A stretch of DNA of 64,000 bases from Raillietiella orientalis (GCA_036172245.1 JAYWIR010000042.1:744001-808000); one strand, 5' to 3'; shown: positions 1 to 64,000, counted from the first letter of the stretch. Notes: generated by a model from the letters alone, not told the origin. Program-made: numbers and translations.

Positions 1-386
1 CAGTAGCGACTCCCACGAGGAGATCGTTACTATTGGCCTAGGACGATGGAAATCCTTGGGTTCTTCTTTTTTCTTCTGCATGCTGTTTTTATTTCAACTT
101 TTTTTTTTGGTTCGCTAAGTACCTCAGAGCCGGTCGCGTGCCTAGCGGCGTACGTGGCTCTTTTTAAACATTAACACACTGTTTTGTTTCCACGCCTCTC
201 CGCCCGCGGCAACCCGCAGGGGGCGTGCAATTCTTCAGGATAGGGGATCCACCCTATGAATCCAGGAAGGGCTCGGAGTCCGTTCCTCTCACGCCAAGGG
301 AGGGATCCCGCCCGGACGGGGGGATCGCACCTCCCACCCTGGTTGTCGCCGAAGGGGTAACCCGAGGGGAATCTTCTTCCTCATTC

Positions 387-550
387 TCTCCGGAGGGACA
401 CCCCCTGGGAGGGGGGTGATCCTCTCCATTTCAACTTCTCCAAAGGGAACCCGGAAAGGATCCGCTAGTAGGAATTCTTCTCCGGAGAGAACCCGCAAGG
501 GAACCGCTCCTGTTCACTCCTCTGAAGAGAACCCCGAAGGGACGCTTCCG
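387..550 (+). repeat. Degenerate ~42-bp tandem repeat
   Basis: gaacccggaaaggatccgct (447), gaacccgcaagggaaccgct (489) and gaaccccgaagggacgct (529), each preceded by tctcc/tctg..aga. Confidence 0.5.
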
Positions 551-2599
551 AAACTTGGAAGGGGCGCTGCAGCTTCCAGCAGGGAATCGCTCTCGCTTGC
601 TTCCTTTTGCACTCTGTGAAGAGTGCGATGACTCGGAGGGTCCCCCCCGCAACAGGGGGTTCCGCTCCTTTGAACAACTGGAGAGGTGCCTATGAAGGCT
701 GCTGCTCCATCTTAAACAAACTGCAGGGGTCCCCCGGTGGGGGGGGTCCGCTCTCCGTTGTACGACTGGAGGGGGAACTCGCCACTCCTTGATTCCTGGG
801 AAGACCCGAAGGTCAATTTCCCATTGTTCTGGCCTTCATCGGGGGCCTCCGGCTTAATCCACCGCCGGTGCCACGCCCGAATGTCTCGGCCAACCAGCGC
901 CATTGCAGGAGAAACTCGGAATCCGAAGACGCAGTGGCGCCAGAATTTCTGCCCAAGTATTAGGAGCCCGCGACACAAGGTGCCACACGCGGAAGCCTTA
1001 ACCACAAGGCCTCCGACCTTTTCTTTTCATGATTACAATTACACACCTCGAAGCCAGGTAAGCCTCTTCTTTTCTACCAGTGTCTTTGAGCTATGATGAT
1101 AGCATACTATCATCATAACTCGACCTAATGTGTTTCGTTTGCAAGGGTGGTTACCTCAATAGGAAGTTTTTGTGTAGAATTTCTCATTCTCTTGAGGATG
1201 GCTCAAAGCTTTGCTTATGAACGCGCATTTCATATGGAAAAAAAGAACAACAGCAGATTAGGGAGAGTGCGTCTGCGTAAAGGTGTGAATTCATAATTGG
1301 AATCTAGGAAATAAAAAGGACAGAAAGTGGTCAAAGGATGCTATTAGAAGCAGTGGTATTTCCACGCATATGAACGAGCATTCCTGCTCCAGAGTCGAAG
1401 GCAATTTTGTCGAATTATTCTCATCGTAGCAAATGATCTCAAGTTGAGGAGGAACAGACATACCAAAAGCAAATGGAAAACGAAACTCACAAATGTGAAG
1501 CCCCATTCTTTCGAACCATAACCGGAATGAGATCCACTGAGCTCCGAGTTGATGTGCTTCTTATGGAGGAAACATCATTGGTGAAGATGGCCGTAGTACG
1601 CCAGTAATTCCGTTCATCGCAGGCTCGTTCCAATGAGAAATGCCCCCTCTACCTCTACTGTACCTCAAAGATCCTACGGTTTCTGTTTTTCTTCCTATCT
1701 GCACTGGAAAGCTGCTGTTTCCATGCTGCTTCCAGAACCTAGGCGATTAATTGAATAGCTCGCTGAACTGATACAAACCAGGACTTCTCTCAAGGTGCCC
1801 TTTTGGATTAGGTTCTTCCTCTCAAGATCAGAGTTTCCTTTGTAGTTCGTTTCTAGGATACCCTGGCAGATAAAGCAGCGCCTGCTAAGACGGGGGGTAT
1901 CTACATAATTCTGGTTCCTGGTTAAGATCAGATTTTTCGAAAGAAAATTTTCCGAGGATGCACTGAAGAAATGTCAGTGTTCCGCAACCAGCTTCAACCA
2001 GTTTCAGGGTTGGCAACGCATTTTCATTTTCGCCGTTCCAAAAAAAAATGGGGGTAGTGGACAATCTTCCATTGTGTATATCTCGGGCAGGTTCTGCAAG
2101 GGCATGAAATATCATCTGGATTCCTTTATTGACAGTTCTACTACTCCTATTACTGAAATCTTCCCAAACAGAGATAATGGATTAAAAAAATGTTCGAAAA
2201 AAAGTGGTGAATTCCATCAAGAATCCATCTTTAGATGACTGAAGACACAAACCTAAGGATACCCAACAACAGCAATACCGGCAGACAAGGAGGAAATCTT
2301 TAATGGCTTCCATAAGTTCCGTTCCGTGCATGTGTGCGGTGAAGATGCAATTCATCATCCCCCACTGAATCTGCGAAAACAATCTACGCGGAGATGAATA
2401 CCCCTGAGTTTTTGCAAACCTTGGACTGTCTCTGCTAAGCCGAAACTAACAGACCTGTTTGTTTACGCGCGTGGATGATTCTTCACGACAGTCCTTCCGT
2501 TTTCCTCTTTGTCTGCTGTCTAGAAATGCGTGGTCCTAAATCTAATAATCTAAGCCCATCGCGAATGCTAAAATGGCAGTAAAACAACTTCATTGTCCA

Positions 2600-3276
2600 T
2601 TTGGGCACTGATGAAGTTCTGAAGCGATGTCAGGCGGAAGGAACCTGAACGGTTTCTTCCACTCGTCAAGTTTGGCGCAAGATGGCCGCTTTTTCAGAGG
2701 ATGTTGATACCTTTGTCGATCTTCGGAAGTGTTTCCCGCATCATTCGGAGACGAAAATCGATGCCAATGCGTTTTCAGCTCTTGCACGGCGTGGAATTCC
2801 GCTGCGTGGTACTTCGCATGCTGACAAATCGATGCTTGAGACTCCGCGTTTCTCACATCGGGTTTCTCGGGGCGTCTGCTCAAAGAAGTGGCACTACAGG
2901 ATGAGGAGCCTGATGAGTCGGTTCGCCGCCTGCTGCACACTGCCACCTGCCTCGAGGCCCACCCACTCGATTCGGCTCTCTTTAGACCGTGCTCCCACCT
3001 TCCGCCGGCTTCCACGTTCACACGGTTTCATTCTTGCCTCGGGCTTGCAACCGCTTGCTTTCTAAAGAGTGTCATCTGGAGCGGGAAGACAAGTCGGCAG
3101 CACCGCGTGCCACTGCCGGATCTGCCAGAGTATCAGACATTATCATCGACACTGCGATGCCGAATATGTGTCGCATCTATGGCAACCACCTCTGTGTGGA
3201 CTCCCGCTTTATGCTACCCGAGCCTGTGAAATCCTCTGGAATTGCTCATTTCTTGAGCGAGACCAAAGCAAGCTAA
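2600..3276 (+). mobile_element. Decayed LINE ORF2 3' portion
   Basis: Fragments LRLRVSHIGFLG, LLHTATCLEAHPLDSAL and IAHFLSETK resemble the post-RT and C-terminal regions of I/Nimb-type LINEs; frameshifted. Confidence 0.35.
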
Positions 3277-5304
3277 GACGCAGAAGGGAAGCTCGGAGAT
3301 CACAAAGCAGCGAAACGTGTAAGCTGAATGCCTGTGCAGAGCCCGAAATGGAATCGCTGCCGAGACCAATCCCCTGCCGTCCTTGAGAACCTGTGAGGTA
3401 AACTAGAAAAGACAGAAGCTCACCGATGCGGACAGTTTGGTCTTTTCGCCGACCTTCCGAGAACGTTGCGTGTGAACGGAGAGCTGGCAGAACACGCGGA
3501 AACGGCAAGAAACCTCCCCTCATCCAGATGAAAGGGAACGCGGCAATCATCTTCAGTAGGTGGCTACTGCAGATGATTGGATCTGAGGATGCGAGCTTGC
3601 AACCATGAAATCACTTCGTGCGTGCCGCACACTGTTCCGCTTTCCCGAATTTCTCTTCTGGTGCTTGCTGCACTCCTCTCAGAGGCGCAGAGCTTTCGTC
3701 CCGGGAGTGCTCCCAGTTCTGCTGGAGCGGCGAACCGCGGACTGTACTCCCTCGGCCGCCTTGTCCAGAGACCAACCTTCCCTTTCCCTCACCTTGGAAT
3801 GGCTCCCGCAGAGACTCCTGGAGTGACGACCGCAATCGCGCGCGCCGCTATCTCCGGATGGGTGTCCCTCACGCGGGGCTGGCGGGAGCAGTTCGCGCCT
3901 ACGCAACTCGCCAGAGCCTCTACCCCAAGAAACGCGGCTGCTTGCGACTACTCCTCCTTCCTGGGACGAAAGAAGAGTCCCTTTATATTTTTAGCAGGAT
4001 GCATGAGTGATCAGCAAGCGATCCAAATCAAACTCCAACTGTCTTCCCTGGAGAGACAGCAGCAGACAAGATCCGATCCTCGAAGAACAGGAAACAAGTG
4101 GGCGATTAGAGATGTCCCCTGCGTACTCGGCTGATGCTGTCGATTGCCGCTCACCTTTTCCCCGTTTGGGCGTCCATCTCTTCCGCTGCTCATATGGAAA
4201 AGCAGCAGAACATTCCCTGAGTATCCCACGGCTCCAGTTTGTCCCATTTCTCGAAGAAGAAAACGAAACGTCAGACGAGAGGGAGAAAGGAGGGAACCTG
4301 CCGCCAATCGCGCCACATCCCTCTGAAACTCTTCTTCCACCTCTTTGGCCATCCCCGTGCTCGTGGCTCTACTCGCATTTCCAAATTTCTTTCGATGGGA
4401 CTCACAATGCGCGAGGATTTCTTCCGAGAAGCCGCATCCTCGGGCTGCATGCTCGCGGAGAAATGCTGTGCGACGCCCTCTAAGCGCACGCAGCCGGAGG
4501 GCTGCCAAGCTGCCGTCCGTCTGGAGGCTACGACCGCGGCATGCCGTGCCCGGCGCGCGCCAGCTGGGCGCGCGTGCAGGTTCCACGAGAACTCGCTAGC
4601 GGCGCTGCCGTAGCAGTGCTCCCGAGCAAAGGGGAGCTCGGAAAACAAAGCCGGGATGAACAAAGGGAGAGAAGCGGTGCGCAAGCGCTTCTGGTGCCAC
4701 TTTGTAATCCATTGTAAAACAAACGTCAAAGTCGACGGCGGTACCGCCTGTCTCGAAGGAGTGCTCAGCCACTTCCGGACCTCAAAGCCCTGCCACGCGC
4801 ATCGTACTCAAGAGGGATGCGTCGAGCTCGTCCGCGCAGAGTGGAACCCTCCTCCTCCACGGAAAATGGGGCCGAAACATCCCAAACCGGATGTGGAGAA
4901 GAGAGGCCTTCGAGGATTTGATCCTCCAAAGTTGATCCTCTGGGCTCATGCGTGGCAGCCTTGTGTTCAGGCGCTCTTTGAAGGCGCACGGACTTCCCGA
5001 CACCGGGTTCGAGGGATGCTGAAGGGAAGAGCTCACCCCGCACGGGATAGCGAATGGCGGGCCAGCGCTTTCCGTGAGGCGTCCAGCCAAGGGAAAGACC
5101 CTTCGGATAACTCCGAATCTGCTACCGTCGATCCGGGTGGGTTGACTTGAACACACGCGGTTCTGGGATGACCCCAGATCTCGTGGTTCGAAGGGAAACC
5201 GAAAAAACCAGGAACCCGCCGAGTGCAAACCGGATCTGAAGAGATGAGGGAGGAAGGAGAAGGGAAGGAACTCTTCTTCCCTTTCTCACTCTGCCGTTTT
5301 CCAG

Positions 5305-5377
5305 CTCGACCTGAACCTGCAGAAGGAAGAGGGCGACATCAGCGGATTCATGGAGAACGGAGAGTGGGACTTGATAG
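5305..5377 (+). CDS. nAChR exon, loop F region ([24 protein letters not shown])
   Basis: ttttccag| acceptor, |gtaag donor, 73 nt, NGEWDL motif. Confidence 0.93.
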
Positions 5378-11300: not shown

Positions 11301-14300
11301 AATCATGGTCCTCCTCTTCATCAGGCTCACTAGCTTTGCTTTTAAGTCGACGAGCAATTGTACACATCGACCTGTTCATTAGATTTATGTTCTTTACATC
11401 TGTTGACAATCTCGGTCACATGTGTTTTTGTCGATATCATTGTGAAATTGGTATTTGAGTATGACCACCAAGAACTTGATGACGGTGATGACTTGTCTGC
11501 CGCTCTGCTGTTCGTCTTCTAACACTTCAGTAAACCTCCAAATGCAAGGGTGAGGGGCGACCATCAGCTTTGGAAATTTTGTGTCACTGTTGTCTGCCTT
11601 GTGATCGCCGTTTAGCACTGATGTATAGACATACCAAGTTTCTTGTGGAAATCTTGGCGCTTTGGGTCTTCTTCTGCTTCTCCCACGCCTTCCATAGTCA
11701 CGCACTCTTTCAACATAGTCCATCCAAATTCTCTTTCCGCATTCTCCACAATGTACGCAAAAATTTCCTTTTCGTCTCACAGAGGAACAAATGGGAGTCA
11801 AAACAAGACGGATACTTATGCGTGTTACTTCCCCTTGTCTTGCACTCGGATTTTGAATCCACTTTTCTCAATGACCCAATATCAAGGATCATTTGCCGGG
11901 GACCAGATGTTGCAGTGAACTTTTTGGACAGAACCAAATTTCAAAGACTTTTTGGTGTAAAACAGCAAAAAGTCCTTGAAATATCTGCTGACCATGTCTT
12001 CACGAAAGTCCATGACTTCCAGGTATTCCAGCCCAGAAAAACATTAAGCATTACGTTTGCTGCCCGGAGAAACCTTACGTGGACGTAACTTTCACCATCC
12101 ACATACGCAGAAGAACGTTATACTACTTCTCGAACTTCATCCTGCCTTGCATCCTTATTTCTTCGATGGCATTACTGGGATTCACACTGCCTCCCGACTG
12201 TGGTGAAAAGTTGGCTCTTGGTAAGTGAGTGTTGCATTTATCCGTTCTTGGAGAGTGATGAGACCTACCCTTGGTCTTCCTTCCCTTCTCGCTTATTATC
12301 TCAGGAGACGTGAGACACGGGCATTCTTAGAATGAGTTCTCGGTGATTCGGAATGATCGAATCTCAACCACGGATCGACCAGATTTTTCACTTGGTTTTT
12401 GCCTCTCCAGTTCTTGGGATGCATTGTGCCAAGACCGACGTGATGAGCTGCATCATGTTAGCAAAGCGGCCTTCACGCTTGCGACATCAGAGAACCGGTG
12501 GGACGAGCGGTGGTCTCAAATGCCTCAACGAGGTTCAGAGACAGAAACTGTTAGCAAGTTTACTCAGCCTCGAGGCTTCGGTTTCCTTTCTGACGTTACT
12601 CGGAAGAATCCTCGAGGGTAAAGTCGAAAGCGCAGAAAGTTTCTGCAATCGTGCACTTCGGTACAAGAGTCGTCGTCAAGTGGTGAGAGATTTCGATCAA
12701 GAGAAGAGCCCAAAGTGACACAGCGAAACTATTAGAATTCACCTGGGGGAATGAAACTGACAAGAGGCAACGCTGGAAGACTTTCTGAGTGACTGGCTGT
12801 AGCCATCGAATACTTAAAATATCCGTGATGGGGGAGAGCACACACACACCTAAAAGCCAAAGCAGTCAAAGCCCAACGGTCGCGTAGTACCAGATCTAAA
12901 AAGCATGTTTCTCTCCAGGGACCCCCACATGGAATGTCATGAGTGCTCCGGAAGCAGTACAAAATAGAAAATCCTAGCATACGCCCTTCTTGTATCAAGG
13001 CTGTGCTCCTCTTATCTGCATTTCCCTGCCGTAACTTTTGTCAGCTGAGAGTTCTACCGTCCGTTCGAGTTTCAAACCCCTTACTTTGAAATGCATGAGA
13101 TTTAAGTAGTCTGATCAGAGATATGCACTCTATTCCCCGGACCACAGCCCATCTCACCGAGGGTCCATCGTCGAGAAACGCATTTCTTAGTCGTCCTGAG
13201 ACTTGCACGAGAACAAAGCGTGTCGCCCTTCACATTCAACACGGAAAGCCGGCGAGCCATTGGCTCTTGATATGAGAAGCTTGGTGAAAGCCGTAAGGCG
13301 GCAGTGCATGGCCACGAATGGGCAGTCACAAAAAGCAAGCTGAGGACACAAAAGCAGATATGGGCTGTGTTCCCAACTTATTCGGTTACATTGGTGAAGT
13401 ACCGGCGACGCGAAATAAAGATAAAAAAGGGAGCAGACACGATTAACCGTCTCCAATTATTTGGCAGTGGGGGCGTTTTTTTCGCTCTCGGAGAAGCGGT
13501 TGCCAATATTTCTCTGATATGCATAGTGCAAGGAGGCAGAGATAGAATGCTGCCTATTCTCGCTGTGATTCCTACCGAACAGGGATAGTATTTCATAAGG
13601 GAACATTCCCGCCGATTAGGTAAGAATGTGAGTATGCTCGGAGTCGCTGCTGTCTTTTCCCAAACAAGAAAGAACGGATCGGTTAAAAGAAATTGTCGGA
13701 AACTTCTTGCTCCACCGCTTGCCTTATGATGGGAATTTTGCAGCATCGGGCGCCTTCAGACAACAGACACATTATAGTCACAACAGTGAAGAAGAAACGA
13801 TGAGTGGACTAAATGGTGATATCCTGCATGATTTCAGTGAGATTTTCAGTGAGATGATCGAACTGTGGGAGATACTGCGAGCTCAGAAGTTGCATTCAAA
13901 GCACCAATTCACAGACATTTAAGCAGACGTTGAGGCGAAATCCATCCTACCATGTCGGTAGAGAAGTGATGGTTTCGGCAGCTTGGGAAAGCGCCGCTTG
14001 AAGGCGCCAATATGTTGGTACAACCTGCAGGGCGGAAAGAGTACACAGAACAGAAACTGCTTTGTGCTGTAAACAGAGACTCATTGGCAAACAGACAAGG
14101 CGTCTCGGCATCCTGTTTCGAGAGAAGCCGCAACAGGTCTCAGTACAAGAACGGAATTCAGATCCTCATTCGAGGATACTAGCACACGAAAAATGCAGCC
14201 TTGAATGGCCGATCTTACCGTTACCAGAGCGGGTGGATCAGAAGCAGCATTCGTGCAAGTCAGCTAGAAAGCAAGGATTCAGTAAACTGTTCCTCAATAT

Positions 14301-17300: not shown

Positions 17301-20300
17301 CAGTCGGGGTCGAAGAGCTCTCCGGAAGGAACAGAGTTTCTGTCTTACCTTCTGGTTCCCGCGTCTGAAAGGGAGATGGAGCTCTGCTCTGGCGGAAGCG
17401 GATGGGATTCGCGCGCACGCGCGGCGCAAAGAAAGGGAGGAGAAGAAAAATCGATGGGGTCCTGCTCGGTACGGGGCTGAACCAGAAAAGAGAAGAAGAA
17501 GGTTTTCAGTCACCATTTCTTATCTTGCGGAAGGCTCGAGAGACTCCGGGAAGCTGCGTTGAAAGGTCAGACGGAGCCTCCGGCTGATGGCAAATCTCCC
17601 CTGTGGTGATGCTCTGTAAAGCTTAGCTCCTGGCCTGATCATTCCCGAGATTTCTCCATGCAGAGAGGGCAAAAAAAATCTCGCGCGCCCGCGTCAGCGG
17701 CTTGGTTCCTCTTCCGTCATGCTCTTCTGATAAAGGGGGTGGGTAATTGGGGAGGGCTGTCTACGAATCAGGCGCAGTAAGGCGTGAAGGCTCTCGGCTA
17801 TTTCGTGCGCGGTTCCTTCGTGGCAGTGCGAAAGACTGCCAGAAGCGGAAATGGGGGGAACAAAACGGGGAGAAGGCAGGGGAGATCTAAGGAAAAACCG
17901 GGAGCGGAAAAGACGAGGCTCGCCTCTTCAGAGGAGCTGGGAAGCGGAGCGGCCACGACGGAGGATCGTGGACGGGAGCTGCGCCTCCTCTCGAGCCGGG
18001 ATCTCCGCACGCGAGGCCGGACCGCGGCCCTCGCCGCCGCCTTGCGCGACATTCCGGGTTCTCGCCTCTTCCCTCCATCTCTCCTGCGAGCTTCTGCGGG
18101 CAGGACCCGCTACCGAAGAGACCGCTGATTGCGAGGGTGCGTGTGGCAGCCCCCACTCTTCCGAGCAGCTAACTCGTTCCCTCCTTCCTTTGTTTTGCAC
18201 CAGGTGTCACTATCTTACTGTCATTGACCGTTTTCATGAATCTGTTCGCTGAGAAGATCCCCGCGTCCTCGGATGCGATTCCGGTGATAGGTAAGCCGGG
18301 AGGAGAAGGGTGGAGGAGGGACGCGCCCCCACCCCCGCTAACAATGGCTCCTTTTCCTTCGCCCTCCTCCTCTGCGCCGCCGTAGCATTTCCAGAGACTC
18401 CTGCTGATCCGTACGGGTCTCTGCGGAGGAGGAGGAGGAGACGGCGGCGTCGAGAGACCCCCTCCCTCCCCCCCCTTCAGGAGCTGCCCATCTTTGTCAC
18501 CTTCCCTCCCTTTCACCTTCCTCTCCTCTTTCCTCTCTCGTTCACCACCAGAACTGCTCTGCAGCAAGCATCAACACCCAACCACTGCTCGACATCTGAC
18601 CGTCGCATGCATTGCATTTCAGAAGTAACCATCCTGCTTTCACTGACCGTCTTCTTCAACTTAGTGGCCGAGACTCTGCCACCAGTGTCCGACGCCATGC
18701 CCTTGCTAGGTATGCTGACCCTCTTGCCCTCGCCGGAGGAACGCGTGCACCGGCCAACAGAGTCCCAGGAAGGACAGCGGAATGCGGGGTAGGGAGGGGA
18801 GGATCCCTCCAGTGCCCCACGCTGCCTCTTCCTTCCTTCTCCTTGCACCCGTCCCACTTACTAACAAGAAGCCTCCTCCAGGATCTGAGCAGCCGTGTCA
18901 GAGCGCCGACAACCTTGCGCTTCGCGCCCCGACGCCTCGGTGCGAACAGCTCCCTACCCTTCCGCAGAGACGCTCTCTCTCTCTCTTCTTGCGTATGCGC
19001 TCCTCGGTTCGGTCCTCGATCGCGAGCCCATCGGTCCATCGCTGGATCACTTGGACTCCGTCCACTCCCCGGTCCGCTTCCTCTCTGCTCCCCTCTTCCG
19101 CTCGCAGCTGCTGACCGGGACGCGCCACTCTCGGCTCTCGCACTCCCTTCCTCCAGAGCGTCGGTGAGGGACACGCATTCGCCTGCGTAGAGGAGCGGCA
19201 GCGCGGAGCGCTGTTACCAGAGGGAGAAGGGTAAAATGCGCGACGCAGAGCGGTCGCAGGAAGGGTAAGGGATGGAAGGAAGTTGCATTCGCCTGCCTCC
19301 CGCCTTAGCTTGCCTTTCGCTGCAGCTCCCCATTTCGCACGAGTAGGATCCAGGACGACGCGCCTTCCCTTCTTGTTTCTGCCCCTTTGAAGACGGATGG
19401 CTTCTCCGGAAGCTGCATCTTCGAAGACGGTGGGATCAGGAGTGGGGAGAGCAAGCGCACGTTTCTGCAGCAGACTGCGCTCCGGCGAGCGCGCCGCGGT
19501 TCCGCGGGCCATCTGACCGACCATTCTTTCTCTCTTCCCCACGAAAACTCCAGCAAGGTACTTCAACTGCATCATGTTCATGGTGGCATCCTCCGTGGTG
19601 GTCACCGTCATCGCGCTCAGCTTCCATCACAGGCTCCCGGAGTCGAGCGAGATGCCCTCATGGGTAAGTGTCAGTCCCCCTACGTCTGGAAGGCGCGCGC
19701 GGCGATCCTTCCCGCCTCTTCTTGACCGAGCTGACAACGCCGTTTCCGTTTCTCTCTCGCTTCTCGCATCATGCGTCGGGGGGAGGCGTTGGATGCCCCG
19801 CTGGCAGTGGCCGACCCACTCTTACATTGTTCGACCCACTGCAGCCGATTAGGGAAGCGGGAAAACTCCAACTGGTGAGGAGAATCATCCAGCATGTGCA
19901 AGGATGCAGAGGGATGCGCTCCCCTCTGTTCTTTTGCCAGCCACTACCGAGGATGCAAACCATCCTGGCAAGACGTTCAGGTTTCAGAAAAGAAACTACG
20001 TACCCACGTGAGGAGGATTGAGAGCGCGGCCGAGGAATCTGAATGAACTTCTTAAACGAGGGAGCTGCCCTTTGAGAGACCTCTGGGAAGTCGGAGCTCT
20101 TGGAAGAAGGAACGGAACAGATGTCAAAAGAAACACTCTGGACTACTTCACTGAAGAATCGAAGCACCATTCGGACAATCATATGAGTTCCTCGAGTCCA
20201 AGTGTGGGATGCTGGAGGCGTGCTGAGAAGGTGTGAGGATGGGGACCATGGATCCACCATGCGGAACAAACATGTGGAAAGTCTTCAGTGGAGGACGATG

Positions 20301-25461: not shown

Positions 25462-26959
25462 TCAGAGTGGCTGCACTGGTAGTGGCTGTTCTTCAAGTTT
25501 ATTATAATCCAAATGAAATTCTTTGAGGACTTTGCGCCAATTTTGGGCATCAAAGAAATAATAGGTACCACGCTCATAAGTTGCTGTTTTCTCCAGAATG
25601 GCTACACCCGGAGCTCGGGTCATCCACACTCGTTCTTCTTTGTGATACCTCCAGTCTCTTGCATACAATTCAGAGGCGGCAGCAATCTGCAGGAAATCAC
25701 CCACATAGGTATAGAATAGGTAGAACAGGAGGTCATCTGTGTAGCGACTCAGTTTAAGTTCAGCCAGCTTATCTCTAACGGTGGCACATAAGGGACTCCT
25801 GGAAAGCTAGCTTACCTAATGAACACATTGATGATGTACTCAGAGGGGACATGAAAATCAATATCCTGAGGTCTGCAAGGAGAATCAGCCCATGGCCCAC
25901 CAAATGTAGGGTATAAGCTGTCAGATGAGTTCAAGTTCAATCCTAGGGTAGTCAAATCTTGGCCAAAGGCCAAAGTAACCAAATTGGAATCACTTTCTGC
26001 AACCCGGATAAATGTCAACAATCCTATCATGCCAAACTGATCTGTCACCATACCAGGAGGTATGTTGGTAACTTTGCCTGCACCAAAATTGCATGCATGA
26101 GCTGTTGCATGTATGACAATTTTACCTTCATTGGTAATATTAACTCCACGCTTGCTACTCTTGATTTTTTCCTCAGAAGCAGACAAACTTGTTGTGCTAT
26201 CTTCATTAATTTCCCTGTGAACAACATCGTTCTGATCTCCCAAAATATTAGAATCACTGTTAGTTGTGCCTGGCAAAGCAGGAAAATCTTCAGAACTCAT
26301 AGTAAACTCAGGAGTTTCTGACTGTGGCTGCTTGACCATCCCTACTGTAAAAAATGGAAGTACAAGAATAAATAGGGAGGGCAGAAGGGTACCATAGGGA
26401 GCTCTTCCTGTCATCGGGTTGGGCTGTGAAATAGAATCACCATGACCACGACTTGATAAAGATGGGAATTCAGAAAGATCCAAAGCAGGTGGATTATTAC
26501 TGTCCCCAGCTCCCCCAAAGGAGGGAAGATTAGAAAAGGAGGACAAATATTGCCGGGTCTCAGGTCCAAATCCACGACCCTGTGACACAGAAAAGTTGCC
26601 AAAATTGGACAAGGAGCTAAGACATACATCAGATTTTTTTGAAATTGTCAAAAAAAAAAAACCCACCTCAATCCTGGCCTCTTGATCTCTGTGGAAGACC
26701 GCTGACTTAAAAGATTTCGATTTGTAAGAGGGAGAATTCCTCTGACTGGTGAGGAGTTCTGGGAAGAAAGAGAATTTGATAATCCGCTGGGGAATCCAGA
26801 GGAGGAACTAATTTGTCCTGATCCCAGATTTCTGCTGAGAACACCACGTGACGTTTGGGGCAGGTTCAAGCTACCCATTCCTTGGATGTAAGAATCCTTT
26901 GTGATTCTAGATCCTGAACCAAGTACACTATTCTCCCCAGCTACCCCAAGCATACTCAT
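25462..26959 (-). CDS. CNOT2: CCR4-NOT complex subunit 2 (NOT2/Regena), about 436 aa, 5 coding exons
   Basis: Exons 26959-26667, 26616-26393, 26344-26126, 26077-25816 and 25774-25462 sum to 1311 nt. Motifs: LDLSEFPSL, EFTMSSEDFPALPG, DQFGMIGLLTFIR, DLTTLGLNLNS, RPQDIDFHVP and the NOT-box DWRYHKEERVW...YERGTYYFFD. The ATG at 26959 is preceded by an in-frame stop; the true start is less certain. Confidence 0.95.
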
Positions 26960-35400: not shown

Positions 35401-36820
35401 TCCAGATGCGTCCTCCTGAGATTTCCGTGCTTGCCTCGACCTCGTGCGGGCATCTTTGATAGCCGGACAGGATTGCGAGTCGAAGGGGTTGCCAAGAGCT
35501 TCACTTGGGCGTGTTCCCCTGCTTTTGCAACGTGCGACGGTGCCTTCTTCTGAGGGGAAACCGCTCGCACCGGTAGGCGGTTGCGCACATTTGGGAACGA
35601 CACTTTTCTACGGGAACGCAGGGACATTTCACGTGGTAGAGAGATGCGAATGGCCGTTCTGCGCCGATCGATGGTGGCTCAAGCTGAGAAGAGTGAAACG
35701 GTGACACCGTGGATCGCGGGGGATCGGTTTGAACGCGGTTGATGTTTTGTTTCCAAGGCAACGGTGTCGGACGTGGACGGGAAGCTGCTTTGCTGCGCAC
35801 GATCCAGGTGTCGTGAACTAAGTGGTGGAAATGAAAAGGTCTCTCCCATTTTAGGCACCGGACTGCACCATTCCTGACCGCAGACAACTTCCGTCTTCTG
35901 GGAGTTCCAGAAACAACGCTTTAGCATTTCACTTTTGCTGAGCCGCTCGACTGGACATGGGAAGAAGACTCGCATCCTGCCTCGAGTTCCGATCAAAATG
36001 GCGCGCCCGGAGGGCGGCGACGACCGCGATGTTGCATGAAATCTTCCACTCGGTTACCACGGTTCATTTTGGAGGGCAGAGGGCGCAAGGACGCTGCTGA
36101 TGCATGGTGCAGTGGCAGAACCGTCGACCACGATTCTCTCTTTCGGCGATGCCATCAGGAGACTGCGTGCGTTCGCGGAAGTGCATCTGCGTTCGGGATG
36201 TACGCGTTTTCCGCGTGCCAATGCTCCCTTCATTTCTCTGGATAAGTGTTTTCCTCGGACCGCAATGAACGCGCGTGCTTTTGTACGTTGCTGTAATAAG
36301 AATTGGCGAGCGAGTTGTATTTGTGAGGTGGTTCGCCTCATCAGGAGCCGATCGGAAGAAATGAAAATGGTAGCACCTCTCTGGTGCAACCTCGATGGAA
36401 TGCGCCGTCGTCTCGTCTCTTCTTCCGGTTGCAGTGCTACCGCTCATAGAGACCCTTCGAGCAAATCGATCTCGTCAGATATTATGGTGGTCTTCAAATC
36501 CCAAAGGTATCAATCCTCTCAGGACATCTTGCTGGAGACCTACTGAAAAGTGTTCATCTCGGGTTTGCAAGGTACTTATCGATGCCAACCTACTAGCTTC
36601 TTTCTTCTACAAGCAGCAATGGTAGCAAGAATGCGAGTGGAGTATCACTGCCATTAGTCTTTTATTGTAAGGTTTTTTTCCTGAGCTTTCACAGGAAGTG
36701 CGACGTGAAATGAACTCCACAAAGCCTTCTTGATTGCATCTTCATTCAGTAGAATTTGCAAAGATCACTGTTTCTGGTTCCTAGAAATTCTTCCCAATGG
36801 TCTCGTTCCTTCTCGGAGCA

Positions 36821-37521
36821 CTTCGAGGATCCTGGTGAGACCCCAGACCAGAACTTTGGAAGCACAGCACTTTCACGTGCCACCTTCCGCTCGAGTCTTT
36901 TCTTAAGAACAACCGAACCGCGCTCCACGCCTCCTTCCTGCGGATGCTTCATTCATGGCATTTGCTGCAACCACCGGGCAATCGATGCTCTCGGCCTGTC
37001 CCGTGCCGACGTTCTTCCAGACGTCCATTCACCGGCCTGCGCGATGACGTCACGAAGGACTTTTTGCCGTCCTCTCGAGAGACGGCTTCCGCAGCACGAC
37101 TCGCGGGGGCGGACCGCCCTCGTACGAGAAGGCGCACACGTCGTGCTTGCAGCGCTCCCACGCGCCAGCATAGGAGCGCCGGCACAGTAAGTGCGAGGCC
37201 ATCGAGAGCCAGCCTACGCCTTGCTGTCGCGCCAGCTGGCGTGCGAGGCCACGCGCAACGCGGGTGTCTCTCCACGCACCGCGTGCCTGACGGTGGGCGC
37301 CGAACTTGGCTCGTGTCCCTGCGTCACGTCGAAACGCGCCTGCGCAGCTCTCTTTCGGCCGGTGGCTCTGCTCCAGAGAATGGATGACCGACGCTTCGGT
37401 GCCGGCAGAAGGTGGACCGTGGGTCTCAGCTGCCCGCGAGGCGTGTGGGTAGTCGCCGAGTAGCAAGACGCCCCACCTAGGGTGGGTTCCCGTGAATACT
37501 TGAGGTACCGCGGCTGCTCAT
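36821..37521. repeat. 700-bp GC-rich dispersed repeat, copy 1
   Basis: Direct repeat of 59466-60158. Visible differences are one ~8-nt indel and about two substitutions. Confidence 0.95.
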
Positions 37522-40500
37522 GTCAGAGCACGTATTTTTTTTCAAAGTTCAAACTAAATGCGTATCTTCTCTAGATGCTGCTTGTGGAAGTTACGTATGT
37601 ACATATGCATGCACAGAATAAGAGTTAGGGATGTCCGAAACGTATTTTTTGCACCCTTTTGTGAATTCTAGGTTCGCAGTTGTGGGCTTTGCACAGAAAG
37701 TGATGCAGTTGCACGTTCGCGCCAGTTTCCGAATTCCATGTGTGCAATGAGACACATGGCATCGTGTATGGCATTCTCAGGCGGATGATATTCGTCCACG
37801 TTAAAGATGTCTATGACTTGAAGTGTTCAAAGAGTACTACCTTGAGAATGTGCTAGGGTAAATGCAAAGATTCAGTTGGAAATGGATGCGGTGATAAGCT
37901 ATTAAAGGATTCCAGAAAACTGTTAAACTGTGATTTTTCTCTCCGTTGCACTCTACAGAGTAGCTGTTGGCTAGGGACAACATCCGACGAGAGCCAAATC
38001 CAAGGTGAATAATCCAACTGGGTTATTCAAAGCCTGTCGAGAAGTCTGTTGCAATATCTCGCTGTTCTCGCAATTCGAAGCTAACTGTACAGTGTTGAGG
38101 CTTAAGTTCCATGAAACGGATCAATAAACTTTAAGAGGCTGCTGAATCTGAGATGCACCGGAAACGAAGACTGGTTCTGAAGCATGAGATTGAGGGCTTA
38201 TGAGACGTGAGATTCACCTATGTCTTTTAGAGCTATGTTTCTGTACGTTGGGTCATGACATCGAGAGTTTCATTGTCTTTCTTCAAAGATAGTGAGTGTG
38301 GTCTTCGTGACAGAGGCAGATGTCACCATAATGGAGTTATTCATGAAAAAGCAGCTGTTAATACACTGACTTCTCCATCAGGAAATTGCTATTTTTTTAA
38401 AACATTTCTGAGAGCTCTTCGTCTGCCGGCTTACCGACTCAGTGTACGTGTTCGAAACAACTTTTCAGGGGCAAAGTAAAAACCATTTGTCTGTACAGCA
38501 AGCGTATAGACTACAGATGAATGATGTTTTCCTGATTTACATGGTTTCAATTGGGACAGCGTCTGAAGGAAGGAGGGAATCAGGATGTCGGGCTTCTTTG
38601 TCTCGAGTATTTACGTCAAAATCCATTAGCGTTTTTCGTCGTTAACATCTTTTAATTAATTTCCGTGAGTTTTTTTTTTTTTTTTACCTGAAATCTTCGA
38701 TTTTCAACTTCTCTCAAGCCATAACATTTTCCTTTATTCCATTCTTTTTTTCCGGTCTTTGTGGGAACGTTTTTCTCAGAAGGTGATTCAAATTGTTGGA
38801 TTCTCCGACTCCAAGATGATGTAATACCATGAGCTGTAGGAACTAAAGACTTCCACCATTAGAGGTGCGCTCAACAGTGGAGTGTGGATATGTGATTTTT
38901 ATCAAAAGATGGGACCAGAAGCAGGTCATCCGATGGGCAATTTAAGGTCAAGTCGGAAGAGAAGACAGATAATTTTCTGGAAGAACAGCACTTCTATCGG
39001 GAGGGGGGTACCTGCTCTCCGAGGGTCGCTCGAAGGTTTATTGCAGGAATCGATGGTTTCGCGAAAAAGACGGGATCCCAGAAATGCTTTCTTCTATGGT
39101 CCCAACGAAGAAGCCTCCAAGCAAGCATTTTTCACGGCCTGCACCGTGAAAGCTCAGAGAAGTGCTGCAGCTGCACCTCTTGGCAAATGCTCGAATGGAG
39201 CTCCCCCCAGACACCTGGATTGGCAGATGGCAAGTAAGTTGCCAGTTCTCTCAGTTTTCTGTTCAGGGAACCAAGTATATAATAATTCATGGCAGCGCTC
39301 TTTCGAGCAAGATGGAGCCACCAACGAGCAAGTTTGAAAACCAGCTTGTTCTTTGCCCTGTTGTGAAACACCTCATCGCAATACATGCCATGCCTTCTTC
39401 TGAATCGAAGGATGGAGCCCAGAGAGATCTTCTGTTTAACCAGACGGTTCGCTGAGGACTGTGGCTGAAATGCCACCGTGGCTGCGAACACAACAAAATT
39501 TTTCCTATCCTAGAACCCGTGGACACCGAATTCCCTGCATTTTCATGACAACACGCATACTATTTTTCACTCAGTCGTGGAGTTTTCAATTTCTCGTGTT
39601 TGCTGGGTTGCTACGAGACGCACTTGGTGATTTGCTGGCTGAGATGCGTTTGCGTGAGAGGTCAAGCTTGATGAGGGCCTCCGGGAAGCTTCGGTTGCCA
39701 TGGCATCCGCAGTATGTGAAAGAGGCATCTGATTGTGTACAACTGTTTTAGGCAACCGCACAATTAGGCACAGTTGTTGAATGATTATTGCCATTCTCCG
39801 AATATGATTGGATGCTGCCTTCGTTTTCGTGGTACCTATTAATTGTTTCAATAGATGGAGTGGTTGACTCCTCGTGTTCGGAACATAGAAAATGTTCTCA
39901 GCAAAAGGTTCCCAGCATTTGCCAACGAAAGTTTCAATAGGCGTTTTTTTTTTTTTTTTTTTTTCTTTTCCAGTTATTCCCTGAACGACGAAATCAGTTT
40001 GCCCTTTGAAAACTCGGGTTTCCGCTGCATTTTCAAACGCCTTCTGAACTCAGTGAATGATACATAGAAAGGGAGGAGTAAAGGGTCTTATTAAGATAAG
40101 CTGTACATGATGAGAAAACAAAAGAAAGCAGCAAAAATGGCAAACATAAATTCAAATGAAAGGATAGGTACGCGATTTCGAGGAAACCGGTCCAGACCTT
40201 GGAGCCCGACCAGCTGGAAAAATCCGGTAACACTGCAGTTTAAGGATGGGGTGATCCTTCCCAGGGAGCATTTTGAAAGATAATCAAACAGGCATTCAGA
40301 AGACGAAAAGACTAGGTTGGCTTTTTTTTTTCTTCCTTGCATCGGAGCCACTACTTCCACGAAAGTACACATTTCGTACGCACTCCTGCGACAGGTATTT
40401 AGCACTGCTATACATTTTTAACCAGGAATCACTTTACCTGATCGTAGCTGAGCTGATCAAATCCAAGAACTTCTGTACGGCAAAATTTCTATCCAATTAT

Positions 40501-57900: not shown

Positions 57901-60900
57901 ATGGAAACATGCGAAACTGTCTGAGATTTCGGGCTCGAAGATGAAAGATGAATGATGATAAGAACTGTCTTGACAGTCTTGACTTCGGATAAAAAAGTTA
58001 GTAAAGTGACTGATGCTTTGCATCTCATAGAAACTGGAAGTGGAAAAAGGAAAAATCCCCTTGCATGGGTGGATCCTTTGGCGTTTCCCTCGAGATATCT
58101 GCTCATCTTCGGAAGTTGATCCAATAATGGCCATCGTTTAGTACTATCGGGAGGAACCGAAGGTTGCAGCAGGAATTTGAAGAAGGCCTCTAACGCGGAA
58201 TCAAGCCAGTGAACCGGCTGTAAAAGAGGAACCCAAAGAAAAAGAGGACCGTGAGAAGTGTCGTAAGCTTCCTAGTTCGCTGTCCGTGGTCCCTACCTGA
58301 CGATCTTCTCCCCTGGAGATTCCACTTGCCGAGTCGCATGATTCCTTTCACACGAATGATGTGAACCCCTTCATTTTACCTCCACCCAAAAAGCAAACGA
58401 TAAATATTTCAAACTGCAGTTCATGCACTTTGAAAAATATTTAACGGGCAACACTGTGCAGAAGTCATCTCCGGAATACACCTGCACTGCACTCAATAAT
58501 TTACGGCTCAACTTACCGCTCCAAAAAGCATGTGAATCTCAAGATTCAGCAGCTGGCCTTCGAGAGTGATGCAAAAGTCGCATCTCACGAACTGCTCTCG
58601 GCTGCAAGAATTCAAGACCTCACAAGCTCTGAAGCTAACACCCTTCTGTACTCTTGACAATCACATCTCTGGGAAAGGTCAACTTGAGGAAGCGAGTCAT
58701 CTCAGCAGCATTTCTTTTCACCAAGTTCACCGTGACCCCTTCCTGAGCTGGGAAGATGGAATTTCATGGATCCGTGCAAGCTCGCCATGAGACCATTGTG
58801 ACATCGGAGTATGGATTCCTCAACGTCCTGCTGACACTGCCTTTGTCTTTTTCTTGCTTCCTGTCCGAAACCGAAACAGCAGGAATTCTGGTTGAATTTA
58901 CCACAGATGGCGTCCGTCCGAGCACAGCACCATCATGATAAAGAGTTTTTGGACCGTCTTGCCCTATTCTCCTCGGATGCCTGTTTCTTCAGCACAAAAA
59001 TTCTCCGAATGAATCAAAACGAGGTCGCCTCTTTTAGCTTGCTTTAAAATGCTTCAAAAATGGCAAATTCTTGTTTCTGCCATCCAAAACTCAGAGCACA
59101 CAGAAGACCATCAAAATCGACCTGGACTGTCTACCATTTTCACAGGTATTCCTTTGCGATGGCCATTAAATAAAACGCCTTGAAACGAGTGAAATCTCTG
59201 CCAACAACCAGGAATGGATTTGAGATGAGAAGATCGCCCGCGTCGTAAAAGGAATCACTCACGCAGAGGGAAAATCAATTTGGAAAGATCTCCAAAGAAT
59301 CGGGTGCGCTTGATCTCCTGGTACATTACATTCTCTACCGCTTTTATTGTGAAGAGCGGCAGCAAATGACCAACGGCTAATCTGTGAATGATTGGCACCC
59401 CAGTGATATGCATCAGCAAAGAAACTCTCAAGTGCACAAACAAGTGCTCATCTCTTCTCAGAGTCCTTCGAGGATCCTGGTGAGACCCCAGACCAGAACT
59501 TTGGAAGCACAGCACTTTCACGTGCCACCTTCCGCTCGAGTCTTTTCTTAAGAACAACCGAACCGCGCTCCACGCCTCCTTCCTGCGGATGCTTCATTCA
59601 TGGCATTTGCTGCAACCACCGGGCAATCGATGCTCTCGGCCTGTCCCGTGCCGACGTTCTTCCAGACGTCCATTCACCGGCCTGCGCGATGACGTCACGA
59701 AGGACTTTTTGCCGTCCTCTCGAGAGACGGCTTCCGCAGCACGACTCGCGGGGGCGGACCGCCCTCGTACGAGAAGGCGCACACGTCGTGCTTGCAGCGC
59801 TCCCACGCGCCAGCATAGGAGCGCCGGCACAGTAAGTGCGAGGCCATCGAGAGCCAGCCTACGCCTTGCTGTCGCGCCAGCTGGCGTGCGAGGCCACGCG
59901 CAACGCGGGTGTCTCTCCACGCACCGCGTGCCTGCCGGTGGGCGCCGAACTTGGCTCGTGTCCCTGCGTCACGTCGAAACGCGCCTCTCTTTCGGCCGGT
60001 GGCTCTGCTCCAGAGAATGGATGACCGACGCTTCGGTGCCGGCAGAAGGTGGACCGTGGGTCTCAGCTGCCCGCGAGGCGTGTGGGTAGTCGCCGAGTAG
60101 CAAGACGCCCCACCTAGGGTGGGTTCCCGTGAATACTTGAGGTACCGTGGCTGCTCATTTCAACTTAGGTCTGGGTTTTGTTTCTTCTCGCGGAAGGATT
60201 GTGTATTTTCTGAGCACACTTGGTCCACGAGCTCCTATACTTCATTCTTCTAACTCGCTCCTCATGACTTTGCAGCCTACTTCCTTCCGCAGCTGATCGG
60301 TTACAATGAAAACCAGACTACATTTGTGGGAAGATCCTTGGCTTTTTCCTGCGTGGTGGAAGATTTGGCTCCTTACAAGGTAAAAGCAAAGCGCCAAGTC
60401 TTTTCATGTCTTCTGTGTACCTTGACGTTCTGACCTTTTCGTGGATGAGGACACACTAGGTTTGGCCACTTTTCGGGGTCCTTCTATGCACGAATAACTT
60501 CTTTCCTGAGAGGCGTGTGAGCAAAGGGAACCGCCTCAGCTGGGATGCAACCGTCGCAGCTGTCCGAAGTAGCATCTGCCAAAGTTTTGAGAGCGATCTT
60601 CCGCGAGACGGCGGTTGGAACGTCATAGGATGGATTTCCTTTGTTCCCCAGAATCTATTGTACATCCGTGAAAATGCTTTGTGCTTCTTCACTGCATCCG
60701 TAGTTTTGCCATGGAAACGAAGAACGAGAGCGCGTAACTCACAACGATCGTTGCTGGGTCCTTTGGCTTTTTTTTTCTTTTTGAAGTTATTCCCCATCCT
60801 TTGCTTCGCGTGGCACATGGATCGGCAGTCCACGAAAGTTGTTCAGAATGATTCGGATCGAGACGATCCTGTTCCACGTAACACCTCCTAAGAGGAGTGG

Positions 60901-63361
60901 CACACCCATCCCGGACTTTCTAGAACACAATCAGATGCGACCAATAATGGAGAGGCTGTTCTGGCTTCCGAAGACCTGATACGAGGCATCACCTTTCGGA
61001 TTATGGAACTTTCCGGAAATGGAAACACTGATCATGGCGGAGGATAGCTGAAGCCCTTCTCTCATTCCAGATGTACAAGGTTTTGTAATTCTACAACGAA
61101 ACCGTCGTCCTTTCTTTCACTGAAGAGTATCATGCGAATGAGCAGGATGGTTAAGGGAGGGACACAGGGTCAATCCATTCTTTCCCACCATCTTCAGAAC
61201 ATCAAATCCCTCAGTTTTCCTACAATCCCTTCGTCCCAGATCCAACAATCCCTTCGAGCATCATGTGGAGGGTGCTCCACATGGGGCTCGAAACAGCCAT
61301 CAGTACAGAACATCAGTGGAGAAGGATGCATTGCATATCGTGAGGCTCAGAGCCTGGTTGCCGGGGTAAACAAGAGCCTTCTTTTCGTGCGTTTCAGGAT
61401 GTTTCAGGACCTGAGCGTGATGTCCTCGGATGCGGTCAGGCTTCATGGAGCTCCAGTTCTCCGATATGCTTCTGTAATTCGACTCCATAACGTCGCCATC
61501 CAACTGAATGCTAATAATTGATGTGCATCTTCATCTTTTTCCACAGGGAGCAGAAGCCATCTAGCTGATCTTGCCCTAACGAATTTGACCGTTATTTCAG
61601 AGATCTTCCATCTGATCGTACCTGACCCTGCTCTGTGATGAGCGGCACACTGAGTAGGCTAAGGCGCATGGGATTCGATGGACGCAGCTAAACCCCGATC
61701 TTATCCCGAAAACTGCAATTATATCCCATCCAGAGTCCTAAAACTCCTGTACCCTGACACCACGGGTGGGATTGCCTCATTCTCAAGAGATTCAGCAGTG
61801 TGTGAACCGATGTTCTTCTAGCCAACTGACCTCTTGAGGGGACCTGAAGCATTCAAGTCGCCTCTAGACATCAGTTGCACAGGATGTGAAACAACAAGAC
61901 ACGTGTAGCCATCCTGCCCCTGGCAGGGCACGCAACCTGCGTTGCCAGAAGGCTTGGATAGGCGACCGCCTGGGAAAGCCCGGGTGGCTGTAAACTTTCC
62001 TGTGGGTGAAGCAGCAGTCTTCTTCTGGTTCGTTTCTCGCAGATCGCTTGGTACCACGTCGATTCTGGGACCGTGCTCAGCGTCAACAACCACTTGCTCA
62101 CCCAGGATCCGCGGATCCGCATCCATCACGATAAGCGCCGCACCTGGACCCTGGAGATCACCAACGTGAGCCTTCAGGACAATGGGGAATACATGTGTCA
62201 ACTGAACACTCCAGCGGCTGAAAGCCAGTATGCATACGTGAAGGTGGTAGGTAAGAACGGAGTGCTCGCTTTGTCCCTGATTCTTTGGGAATCCTGATTT
62301 CCTATGCCCGGAGCCTGTGCTTTCGCGCACCCATGAAACGCAACAAATCGAGCGCGTGTTCTCTGAGAATGAAGTTTTTATTATTTAGATTTACAATTAG
62401 ATGGCATATTACAGGGGAGGCTCTTGACAATCTTCCGGAATTCCTACTCTGTTAATCTGGGGAGCTCGTCGCCCCTCAGCATGTCGCTTCATCGCCTTCG
62501 TGTTTTTCGTCTTGCTAGAGTTGACCGCTGGGGTTCTGCTGCATCTGTTTGTGGGTACTTCGTGTGACGTGGGCAGCATATAAGTCGCTGGAGTACCGGA
62601 TGCACAAAGTCACCATCCGGTATCATCGCCCCAGAGTGTTTTTCTGAAATTCCAAGGTCCTGTAGTACTTCCTCGTTACCTGGATCCCCGGCTTCCAGAG
62701 TGCTAATGATGAAAGCATGCATCCTGCACTGCTTTTTCCCCTCTCTGCCTGACAGGAGGGCTACCTAGTATTTTTCCTGTTTGTTCTTCTGGTTGCGCTG
62801 AACGCCTATCTTCCACCCTCTTACTGGCAGCAGATGACCAGCACTATCAACCAGTTTCCTTTTTCCATCATTAAGTTCAATCTTAGTAGTTCGTAGGGGT
62901 AGTTCGTTCCTGGAGCTCTCTGGATTGTGGTCGCTAGGGTCTACTTTGGTTCACCACTGCGGCCTTGATGATCATCTCTTGAATCGCGTCGTGCCGCACA
63001 ATGGATAGGTGAAAGTTTCTCCTGCATCTGTTCAGTACGTGAGATAACGTTTCGTGTTCTGTCCGGAAGCACCGACAGGCGCGTTCTTCTGCTTTCATCC
63101 TGAAGCTGCTTCTCTACATGCTCGTTCTCACAAGAGACGTGCATGCTCCCATCATTTCCTGGTCAAATAACGCTCAAACCGTCTTCTTCACTGACTCTGC
63201 AGATCCTCCGGATATTGTGGACCGCAAATCCAGCTCAGAGGTCGTCGCTCAGGAGAACGGGAGTGCCAGATTGTTCTGCCGAGCTAGAGGTCACCCGGAA
63301 CCTGTTCTTCATTGGAAGAGAGAGGACGGCAATCAAATCAGGATCAACAGGTCCCATGCAG
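54948..63361 (+). CDS. DIP/lachesin-like (IgLON-type) Ig cell-adhesion protein, 3'-partial
   Basis: Exons: 54948-54999 (gcaccATGg; signal peptide MAKTGLLMLFSVLYLRS; least certain), 60276-60379 (FVGRSLAFSCVVEDLAPYK), 62043-62250 (IAWYHVD...WTLEITNVSLQDNGEYMCQLNT) and 63203-63361 (PPDIVD...LFCRARGHPEPVLHWKREDG). All splice phases are compatible. Confidence 0.88.
57450..59460 (-). mobile_element. Decayed LINE body adjoining repeat copy 2
   Basis: GNAKGS (~58080, GVPQGS-like) and HWKTTASVERNE (~57540, RNase H-like); weak. Confidence 0.25.
59466..60158. repeat. 700-bp GC-rich dispersed repeat, copy 2 (inside the first intron of the DIP-like CDS)
   Basis: Near-identical to 36821-37521; both copies give the same ORF translations in the track. 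Confidence 0.95.
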
Positions 63362-64000
63362 GTGAGGACCACCAGCACCCCTGGAGCCCCGAAGCTGATA
63401 ACTGCGAGGTCCATTCTCGCAACTTCTTGAGTGGAAGGAAGGTTGCTTCGATAACGACCTTCTTTTTCTCTCGACGGGACATGGGTAGCAAAGTGCAGAG
63501 GGAGTGCAGGGGATCAGGGGAGATACAAAAAAAGTATGCGTGGAGGTATGGGGGACTTCTGTTGAATTGACCAGGAATTCTTGCCGGGAACGCGAGGTGC
63601 CTCTATACTGCTGTTGCCTGTTGCCCACCGCAACCTCTCACGTGAACACCCAATCCTTTCCGCAGCTCGAGTATTCAGGAGTGCATTCGACCTTCTACGT
63701 TCGTCAGTCGTCAGACTCTCCAGGGAAGAAGATTCCCACTATCCTCAAAGAGACGGGGCAAAGGGAAGTGAAAGAAGAGAGAAAAGAAGGATGGGATACT
63801 CTTTCCTATGAGGAAGAAGACAGATAAAAAAGGAAAGGTTCTCCGGATATCCTCATCCTTGCAGCATCCGTCTACTATACCAGTATACCTCCGGCGACTA
63901 AGACAGCTGTCCAACATGAGGATCACTGCATACTCCTCCCTTCGTGAGGGACGAAAGGAAACCCTATCAGGGTACATTTGTTTGCTATCGGCAACCTGAC

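Follow-up and report, generated by a model that had tools for sequence, protein, structure and literature searches.

Tandem M2 exons of putative 8a and 8b type in an insect-alpha6-type nicotinic receptor gene of a distant non-insect, arthropod-type genome

A nicotinic acetylcholine receptor (nAChR) gene in the 64-kb stretch of DNA analysed here, called the window in what follows, carries two M2 exons in tandem, exon A and exon B. Insect alpha6 genes have the mutually exclusive exons 8a, 8b and 8c according to the excerpted text of Jin et al. (PMC1919356), as the preliminary description of the locus had stated. This raises the question whether the pair in the window belongs to the same system or arose by a duplication of its own, whether A and B are used one at a time, and which properties of the receptor the choice between them would change.

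The pair had been described as two intact 87-nt phase 1-1 exons lying 332 nt apart, and coordinates, splice sites and flanking exons all agreed with this (Table 1). Both exons were preceded by a CAG acceptor (...TTGCACCAG 5' of exon A, ...GCATTTCAG 5' of exon B) and followed by the donors GTAAGC and GTATGC, respectively. The M1 exon ended in ...CTT G before a GTAAGT at 12220, and its last base opened a split 4' codon that read G+GT (Gly) with exon A and G+AA (Glu) with exon B. At the other end, both exons closed on a G which, completed by the CA of the M3 exon, gave GCA (Ala) either way. Taken alone, each 30-residue translation matched the M2 segment of alpha7 chains, human, among the PDB structures (E = 3e-6 for A, 1e-4 for B), and we therefore take the exon pair to be real and beyond chance.

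Table 1. Features of the receptor gene in the 64-kb window.
Feature	Position	Strand	Remarks
Ligand-binding-domain exon	5305-5377	+	tblastn with arthropod homologues; CAG acceptor, GTAAGG donor; 24 residues
Loop C (YVCC) and M1 exon	12023-12220	+	198 nt; single copy; last base is the G that opens the split 4' codon
Exon A (8A; 8a-type M2 and M2-M3 loop)	18204-18290	+	87 nt; (G) + 28 residues
A-B intron	18291-18622	+	332 nt
Exon B (8B; 8b-type M2 and M2-M3 loop)	18623-18709	+	87 nt; (E) + 28 residues
M3 exon	19554-19663	+	110 nt; tblastn; first two bases CA finish the junction codon
Last exon: M3-M4 loop, M4, stop codon	23180-23650	+	Pfam Neur_chan_memb (PF02932), E 5.5e-13

The two exons were identical at 53 of 87 nucleotides. 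Of their full codons, 18 out of 28 encoded the same residue and only 5 were the same codon; within the 10-residue core common to both, 6 codons differed synonymously, so that the earlier observation of a core shared in protein and diverged in codons was confirmed. Nei-Gojobori (NG86) estimates gave a dN of 0.24 with saturated dS. These values supported the view, already put forward from the sequence, of an old tandem duplication with each copy under purifying selection.

Pfam, PDB and protein matches pointed to an alpha7-like, insect-alpha6-type nAChR gene as the holder of the pair. The first part of the M1 exon encoded the vicinal cysteines of loop C, hallmark of an alpha subunit. This exon was 75-78% identical to arthropod alpha6/alpha7-like proteins, and its Pfam match to Neur_chan_memb (E 4.2e-6, 27.6 bits) fell just below the 28.1-bit cut-off. 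The last exon found its best matches in insect alpha6 proteins, at 48% identity. The transmembrane region M1-M4 was thus covered by PF02932 on the last exon, by the matches of M2 to the alpha7 PDB chains and by tblastn matches for M1 and M3, and the two tandem M2 exons, equal in length and phase, stood between a single M1 and a single M3 exon. A tblastn search of the 64-kb window revealed no third M2 copy and no second M1 or M3 exon, and with two 8c-carrying proteins as queries (P0233, P0076) it returned only A and B and no 8c-like exon. The N-terminal part of the receptor was represented by the ligand-binding-domain exon alone; no exon 5' of it was found within positions 1-5304, and the earlier receptor exons must lie beyond the window start.

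Without exon 8, the encoded protein was 52-60% identical to 32 full-length arthropod proteins and 43% identical to one partial krill model. In a gene tree of 33 rows, from which the partial krill model was left out and in which named alpha5 and alpha7 references were absent, the window gene sat on a branch of 0.8 beside an ostracod gene, Cyprideis torosa P0231, outside the hexapod alpha6 clade (79/88, weak). We consider the assignment to an alpha7-like, insect-alpha6-type subunit on a long branch to be supported by these comparisons, and the placement beside the ostracod gene to be weakly indicated. By its distance (52-60% identity, long branch) the host appears to be a non-insect of arthropod type.

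Assignment of the two exons to the insect types started from one 29-residue M2 peptide that occurred unchanged in 66 to 69 retrieved proteins, depending on the motif used. According to the excerpt of Jin et al. (PMC1919356), 8b orthologues do not differ in amino-acid sequence between insect orders, and the recurrent peptide, here called the 8b form, fits this invariance. An M2 form with ...AESMPTTSDAVPLI was found in a Lucilia protein whose name, '3b8a', identifies it as 8a. Exon B agreed with the insect 8b form at 25/29 residues and with the second M2 exon of the Cyprideis gene at 26/29 (27/30 by tblastn), with agreement also in the starting Glu and the ETLPPVSDA motif. Exon A was nearest to a beetle 8a form, ...AEKIPTTSDAVPLI (23/29), and to the leading M2 exon in each of two further genes, that of the springtail Orchesella and that of Cyprideis (22/29 for the latter). 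Among the retrieved proteins and transcripts there was no A-like exon above 23/29, and a search of the protein collection with exon A and its own flanks (44 aa) gave 29 candidates and 7 matches, none of them nearer to A than those already known. The type-specific signatures were both present, AETLPxVSDAxPLL for 8b and AE[SK][MI]Px[TS]SDAxPxI for 8a. Tandem M2 copies, at least two of them, were found in 22 database models; in 15 of these, a-like and b-like copies occurred together, the a-like copy coming first in every case, as it does in the window. From these resemblances we assign B to the 8b type and place A with the 8a-type exons. The preliminary description had considered the variants to differ from the insect ones, a statement that we have to revise, B being of 8b type (25/29), A grouping with 8a-type exons and the insect genomic order being kept. 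Both M2 exons were more constrained than the rest of the protein (25/29 for B and up to 23/29 for A, against 52-60% elsewhere), which favours their homology to the insect exons.

Exon trees pointed in the same direction. With 37 rows, A and B stood apart and B fell within the 8b-like clade (89/78); with 55 rows, the b-like clade was split from the rest with a support of 94/98, and B had the second Cyprideis M2 exon as its sister (95/78). Exon A was found among the a-type exons with Lys at 21', together with the first exons of Cyprideis and Orchesella and the beetle 8a exon (80/80, 90/81, 96/78). Forcing A and B to be sisters cost 13.1 log-likelihood units in the 37-row set (AU test, p = 0.002) and 14.8 units in the 55-row set (p = 0.115); trees and tests rest on 29 columns and the test is unstable. 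End branches were longer for A (0.25-0.28) than for B (0.08-0.09), and A had a Phe at 18' that was unique among the rows compared, as well as an unusual Val at 31'. Between the two origins left open previously, a deep homologue or an independent duplication, the former is favoured by the 94/98 split and the shared order, and the latter is disfavoured, with one of the two AU tests not rejecting it. Since the p values diverge in this way on 29 columns, we call the deep homologue favoured and not proven.

What the choice between A and B would change was read from the residues that differ, counting the Lys of GEK as 0'. Differences occurred at 4', 15', 18', 21', 22' (I/L), 24', 25', 29', 31' and 32'. 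Those listed before, G/E at 4', M/F at 15', F/V at 18' and K/T at 21', were all correct, and the divergence across the M2-M3 loop was found as A/P at 24', S/V at 25', I/M at 29', V/L at 31' and I/L at 32'. The residues at 6', 9', 13', 16', 17' and 20' were the same in A and B, and 2' lay within the shared M1 exon. All of the classical pore-facing positions in the exons (6', 9', 13', 16', 20') were unchanged between A and B, so the pore lining itself is not switched; the characterization of the pair as alternative pore-lining M2 exons is right in that both encode M2, and falls short in that these pore-facing residues do not differ. Alignment to the alpha7 chains equated 15' with residue 253 and 22' with residue 260, and the earlier identification of 15' with M253 of human alpha7 is borne out by the PDB match. 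As given in the excerpt of PMC3205184, M253L and M260L are TM2 mutations that cut allosteric potentiation, M253 being situated in an intrasubunit cavity and M253L lowering potentiation by PNU-120596 and NS1738. The choice would likely be felt in gating and in allosteric modulation, and not in ion selectivity, with a possible exception at 21', which adjoins the outer charge ring. Across arthropods, a-type and b-type exons differed consistently at 21' (S/K vs T), at 22' (M/I vs L), at 24'-25' (TT/ST/AS vs QV/PV) and at 32' (I vs L). The M/F difference at 15', judged from the sequences compared, is particular to the lineage of the window.

Indirect evidence on exon use came from relatives. In insects, RT-PCR and cDNA clones revealed alternative use with the frequency 8b > 8a > 8c, according to the excerpt of Jin et al. 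(PMC1919356). Among our matches were RefSeq isoform pairs that differed in just the M2 exon (Adelges X1/X2, Melanaphis X1/X2). Metagenome contigs, scanned with the last exon as query, yielded 54 loci, five of which were intron-less, cDNA-like contigs spanning M1 to M3 (L001, L006, L007, L024 and L027). All five of these arthropod-type contigs contained one M2 exon, as a matching segment of 84-87 nt. By analogy with these relatives, one exon per mature mRNA is the most likely mode of use in the window gene.

The same scan also illustrated how variable the exon number may be in such genes. Two genomic loci with related alpha7-like genes, L047 (1149-6159) and L004 (268-4146), each contained six intact tandem M2 exons followed by one M3 exon; the six copies had AG/GT sites and the same phase, copy 3 being a-like and copy 4 b-like. 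L013 (6674-7141) had two M1 exons in tandem, and L014 (2049-5325) four M3 exons. Two M1 segments were present in protein models of decapods, termites, grasshoppers and stick insects, and models of the stick insect Timema had up to four M2 segments. In L008, L009, L026 and L030, the C-terminal portion (MA-M4) of the last exon was matched twice in tandem, with a spacing of about 100 nt; these matches may be alternative M4 exons.

We consider it quite probable that A and B are the 8a and 8b members of an alpha6-type exon-8 cluster which hexapods, ostracods and the lineage of the window owe to a common ancestor, and that they are used one at a time to give two subunits. The cluster would have been passed down from that common ancestor, and each mature mRNA would take either A or B. 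The two resulting subunits would have the same pore-facing residues and would be distinguished on the back of the M2 helix, at 15', 18' and 22', where the equivalents of alpha7 M253 and M260 border the intrasubunit allosteric cavity. They would further differ beside the outer charge ring (Lys or Thr at 21'), at 4' (Gly or Glu) and in the M2-M3 linker, through which agonist binding is transmitted to the gate. As a consequence, the two forms would be expected to differ in gating or in allosteric behaviour.

Given its long branch and the Phe at 18', exon A may be one that is seldom used, or its constraint may have been relaxed. A stronger version of this idea, in which only exon B is used and A is a skipped relic or negligibly included, seems unlikely to us. 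The longer end branch of A, its odd residues at 18' (F) and 31' (V) and the database search that gave no closer A-like exon would all suit a relic, and in the excerpt of Jin et al. (PMC1919356) insect 8a is used less than 8b and is missing in Anopheles and Bombyx. Exon A nevertheless has an open frame in the right phase, a polypyrimidine tract stronger than that of exon B (0.85 vs 0.65) and a GTAAGC donor. Moreover, synonymous sites between A and B are saturated, and still A retains 23/29 residues of the beetle 8a-type exon, where other parts of the protein reach 52-60%. After a time long enough for saturation, decay of an unused exon would be expected. A duplication inside the lineage of the window, with convergence accounting for the likeness to 8a and 8b, is in our opinion very unlikely. 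It is true that the AU test on the larger set, with its 29 columns, did not reject it (p = 0.115), and that M2, M1 and M3 exon clusters expand independently, as in the loci with six M2 (L047, L004), two M1 (L013) or four M3 exons (L014). However, trees with A and B together were 13-15 log-likelihood units worse, the split that separates them had a support of 94/98, and each exon paired with its type-matched counterpart in the ostracod gene, which was also the nearest whole gene (79/88). The a-then-b order is shared with other models, and A and B have only 5 identical codons.

Least credible of all is that both exons are joined as a rule, producing a subunit with two M2 segments. Double inclusion of A and B would keep the frame (A ends with G, B starts with AA), and 22 database proteins contain tandem M2 segments; a double-M2 form among our matches was the 'variant type V' protein of Drosophila Dalpha6 (P0198). 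Several of these tandem models, though, are just 'hypothetical' or 'unnamed protein product', others being RefSeq isoforms, and the cDNA-like contigs of relatives had one M2 in 5 out of 5 cases. A fifth membrane helix would also not fit into the Cys-loop fold, as the orientation of M3 and M4 would be inverted and the four-helix topology broken. In a different part of the gene, a tick alpha6 form that included the two exon 3 copies together gave no functional receptor in oocytes, according to the excerpt of PMC13578988. Inherited 8a and 8b exons, used alternatively, remain our preferred reading of the pair.

How exclusive use might be achieved was considered from the surrounding intron sequence. 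The length of 87 nt is a multiple of three, which rules out policing by frameshift. Steric hindrance is unlikely, the 332-nt intron being long enough and a branch-point-like CTGAC lying 27 nt 5' of exon B. Incompatibility between U12-type and other sites was discarded as well, since neither donor (GTAAGC, GTATGC) fits, by eye, the U12-type donor consensus. As to competing RNA structures, 20 low-complexity inverted repeats of GGAGG/CCTCC flank the exons, yet there was no excess of folding: the region 18150-18900 (751 nt) was not more stable than its shuffles (z = -0.71, 3/20 shuffles as good), which leaves competing structures unsupported. The A-B intron contained purine-rich GGAGG tracts at 18297-18320 and 18423-18441 and a CU-rich tract at 18459-18546. 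On the plus strand of the 64 kb, the sole 60-nt stretch with at least 90% pyrimidines was at 18484-18546, 77-139 nt 5' of exon B, and a second CU tract followed 3' of exon B at 18820-18850. The unique CU-rich tract 5' of exon B suggests a PTB-type repressor acting on this exon as a candidate mechanism.

The insect alpha6 gene (Dalpha6) and the window gene have in common the exon slot, flanked by the M1 and M3 exons, as well as the 8a and 8b signatures and the order a then b. The window gene differs in having two copies and no 8c-like exon, in carrying M (A) or F (B) at 15' where insects have L, in the Glu at 4' with which exon B starts, and in Ala as the junction residue instead of Gly. The exon 8/9 junction codon, GCA (Ala) in the window gene, is G275 in thrips alpha6, a spinosad-resistance site (excerpt of PMC3644170). 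The Cyprideis gene, the nearest whole gene to that of the window (79/88), likewise has a first M2 exon of the a-type with Lys at 21' and a second one that starts with Glu; it is, however, an unnamed automatic model that reads both M2 exons in tandem, and with 57% overall identity it is not close. M2 and the M2-M3 loop of human and vertebrate alpha7 (CHRNA7) align without gaps to A and B, and the Met at the M253 position is kept in exon A. Human alpha7 chains presumably have an Ala after PLI, as at the junction codon of the window gene. In vertebrate alpha7, the M2 exon is 87 nt long, the next exon 110 nt, and the M2 exon is single and constitutive; an alternative M2 exon is not known to occur there.

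Among the papers searched, we found no description of exon-8 variants outside insects. The excerpt of a tick study (PMC13578988) dealt with the exon 3a and 3b forms of alpha6 only, and a paper on mite nAChRs named alternative splicing as still to be studied. Automatic gene models in the databases already show an a+b pair in a springtail and an ostracod. As far as the sequence goes, the pair in the window is the insect alpha6 exon-8 system in its minimal a+b form, without 8c, in a distant non-insect, arthropod-type genome, and in this sense largely ordinary. A further-reaching proposition, whose chances we see as evenly balanced, is that the 8a/8b choice was already present in the ancestor which the lineage of the window shares with hexapods and ostracods, or still earlier. 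The type differences at 21', 22', 24', 25' and 32' would have been kept since then with the pore-facing residues fixed, making the exon pair a two-state module for gating and allosteric behaviour, perhaps for an endogenous modulator of the transmembrane site, to which the M/F difference at 15' would have been added later. If true, the 8a/8b choice would not be an insect invention, and a type-matched pair in a distant non-insect lineage would date the duplication well before the approximately 300 million years argued from insects alone. The matter is of practical interest: spinosyn insecticides act on alpha6, whose exon-8 variants adjoin the resistance site G275, and the positions kept different in the pair are candidates for effects on gating, on allosteric pharmacology and on the sensitivity of non-target arthropods.

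Other features were observed in the window beside the receptor gene. On the minus strand, an open frame at 25465-25806 encoded a NOT2/NOT3/NOT5 C-terminal domain (Pfam E 1.6e-31), which suggests a gene for a CCR4-NOT subunit converging on the 3' end of the receptor gene; compared with all representative proteins, this exon reached 75% identity at best, the top-scoring match having 74%. An open frame on the plus strand at 63043-63567 encoded an immunoglobulin domain (Ig_3, E 4e-8). Finally, a 717-bp direct repeat at 36809-37525 and 59454-60162, with 98% identity between copies 22 kb apart, is probably a dispersed repeat element.
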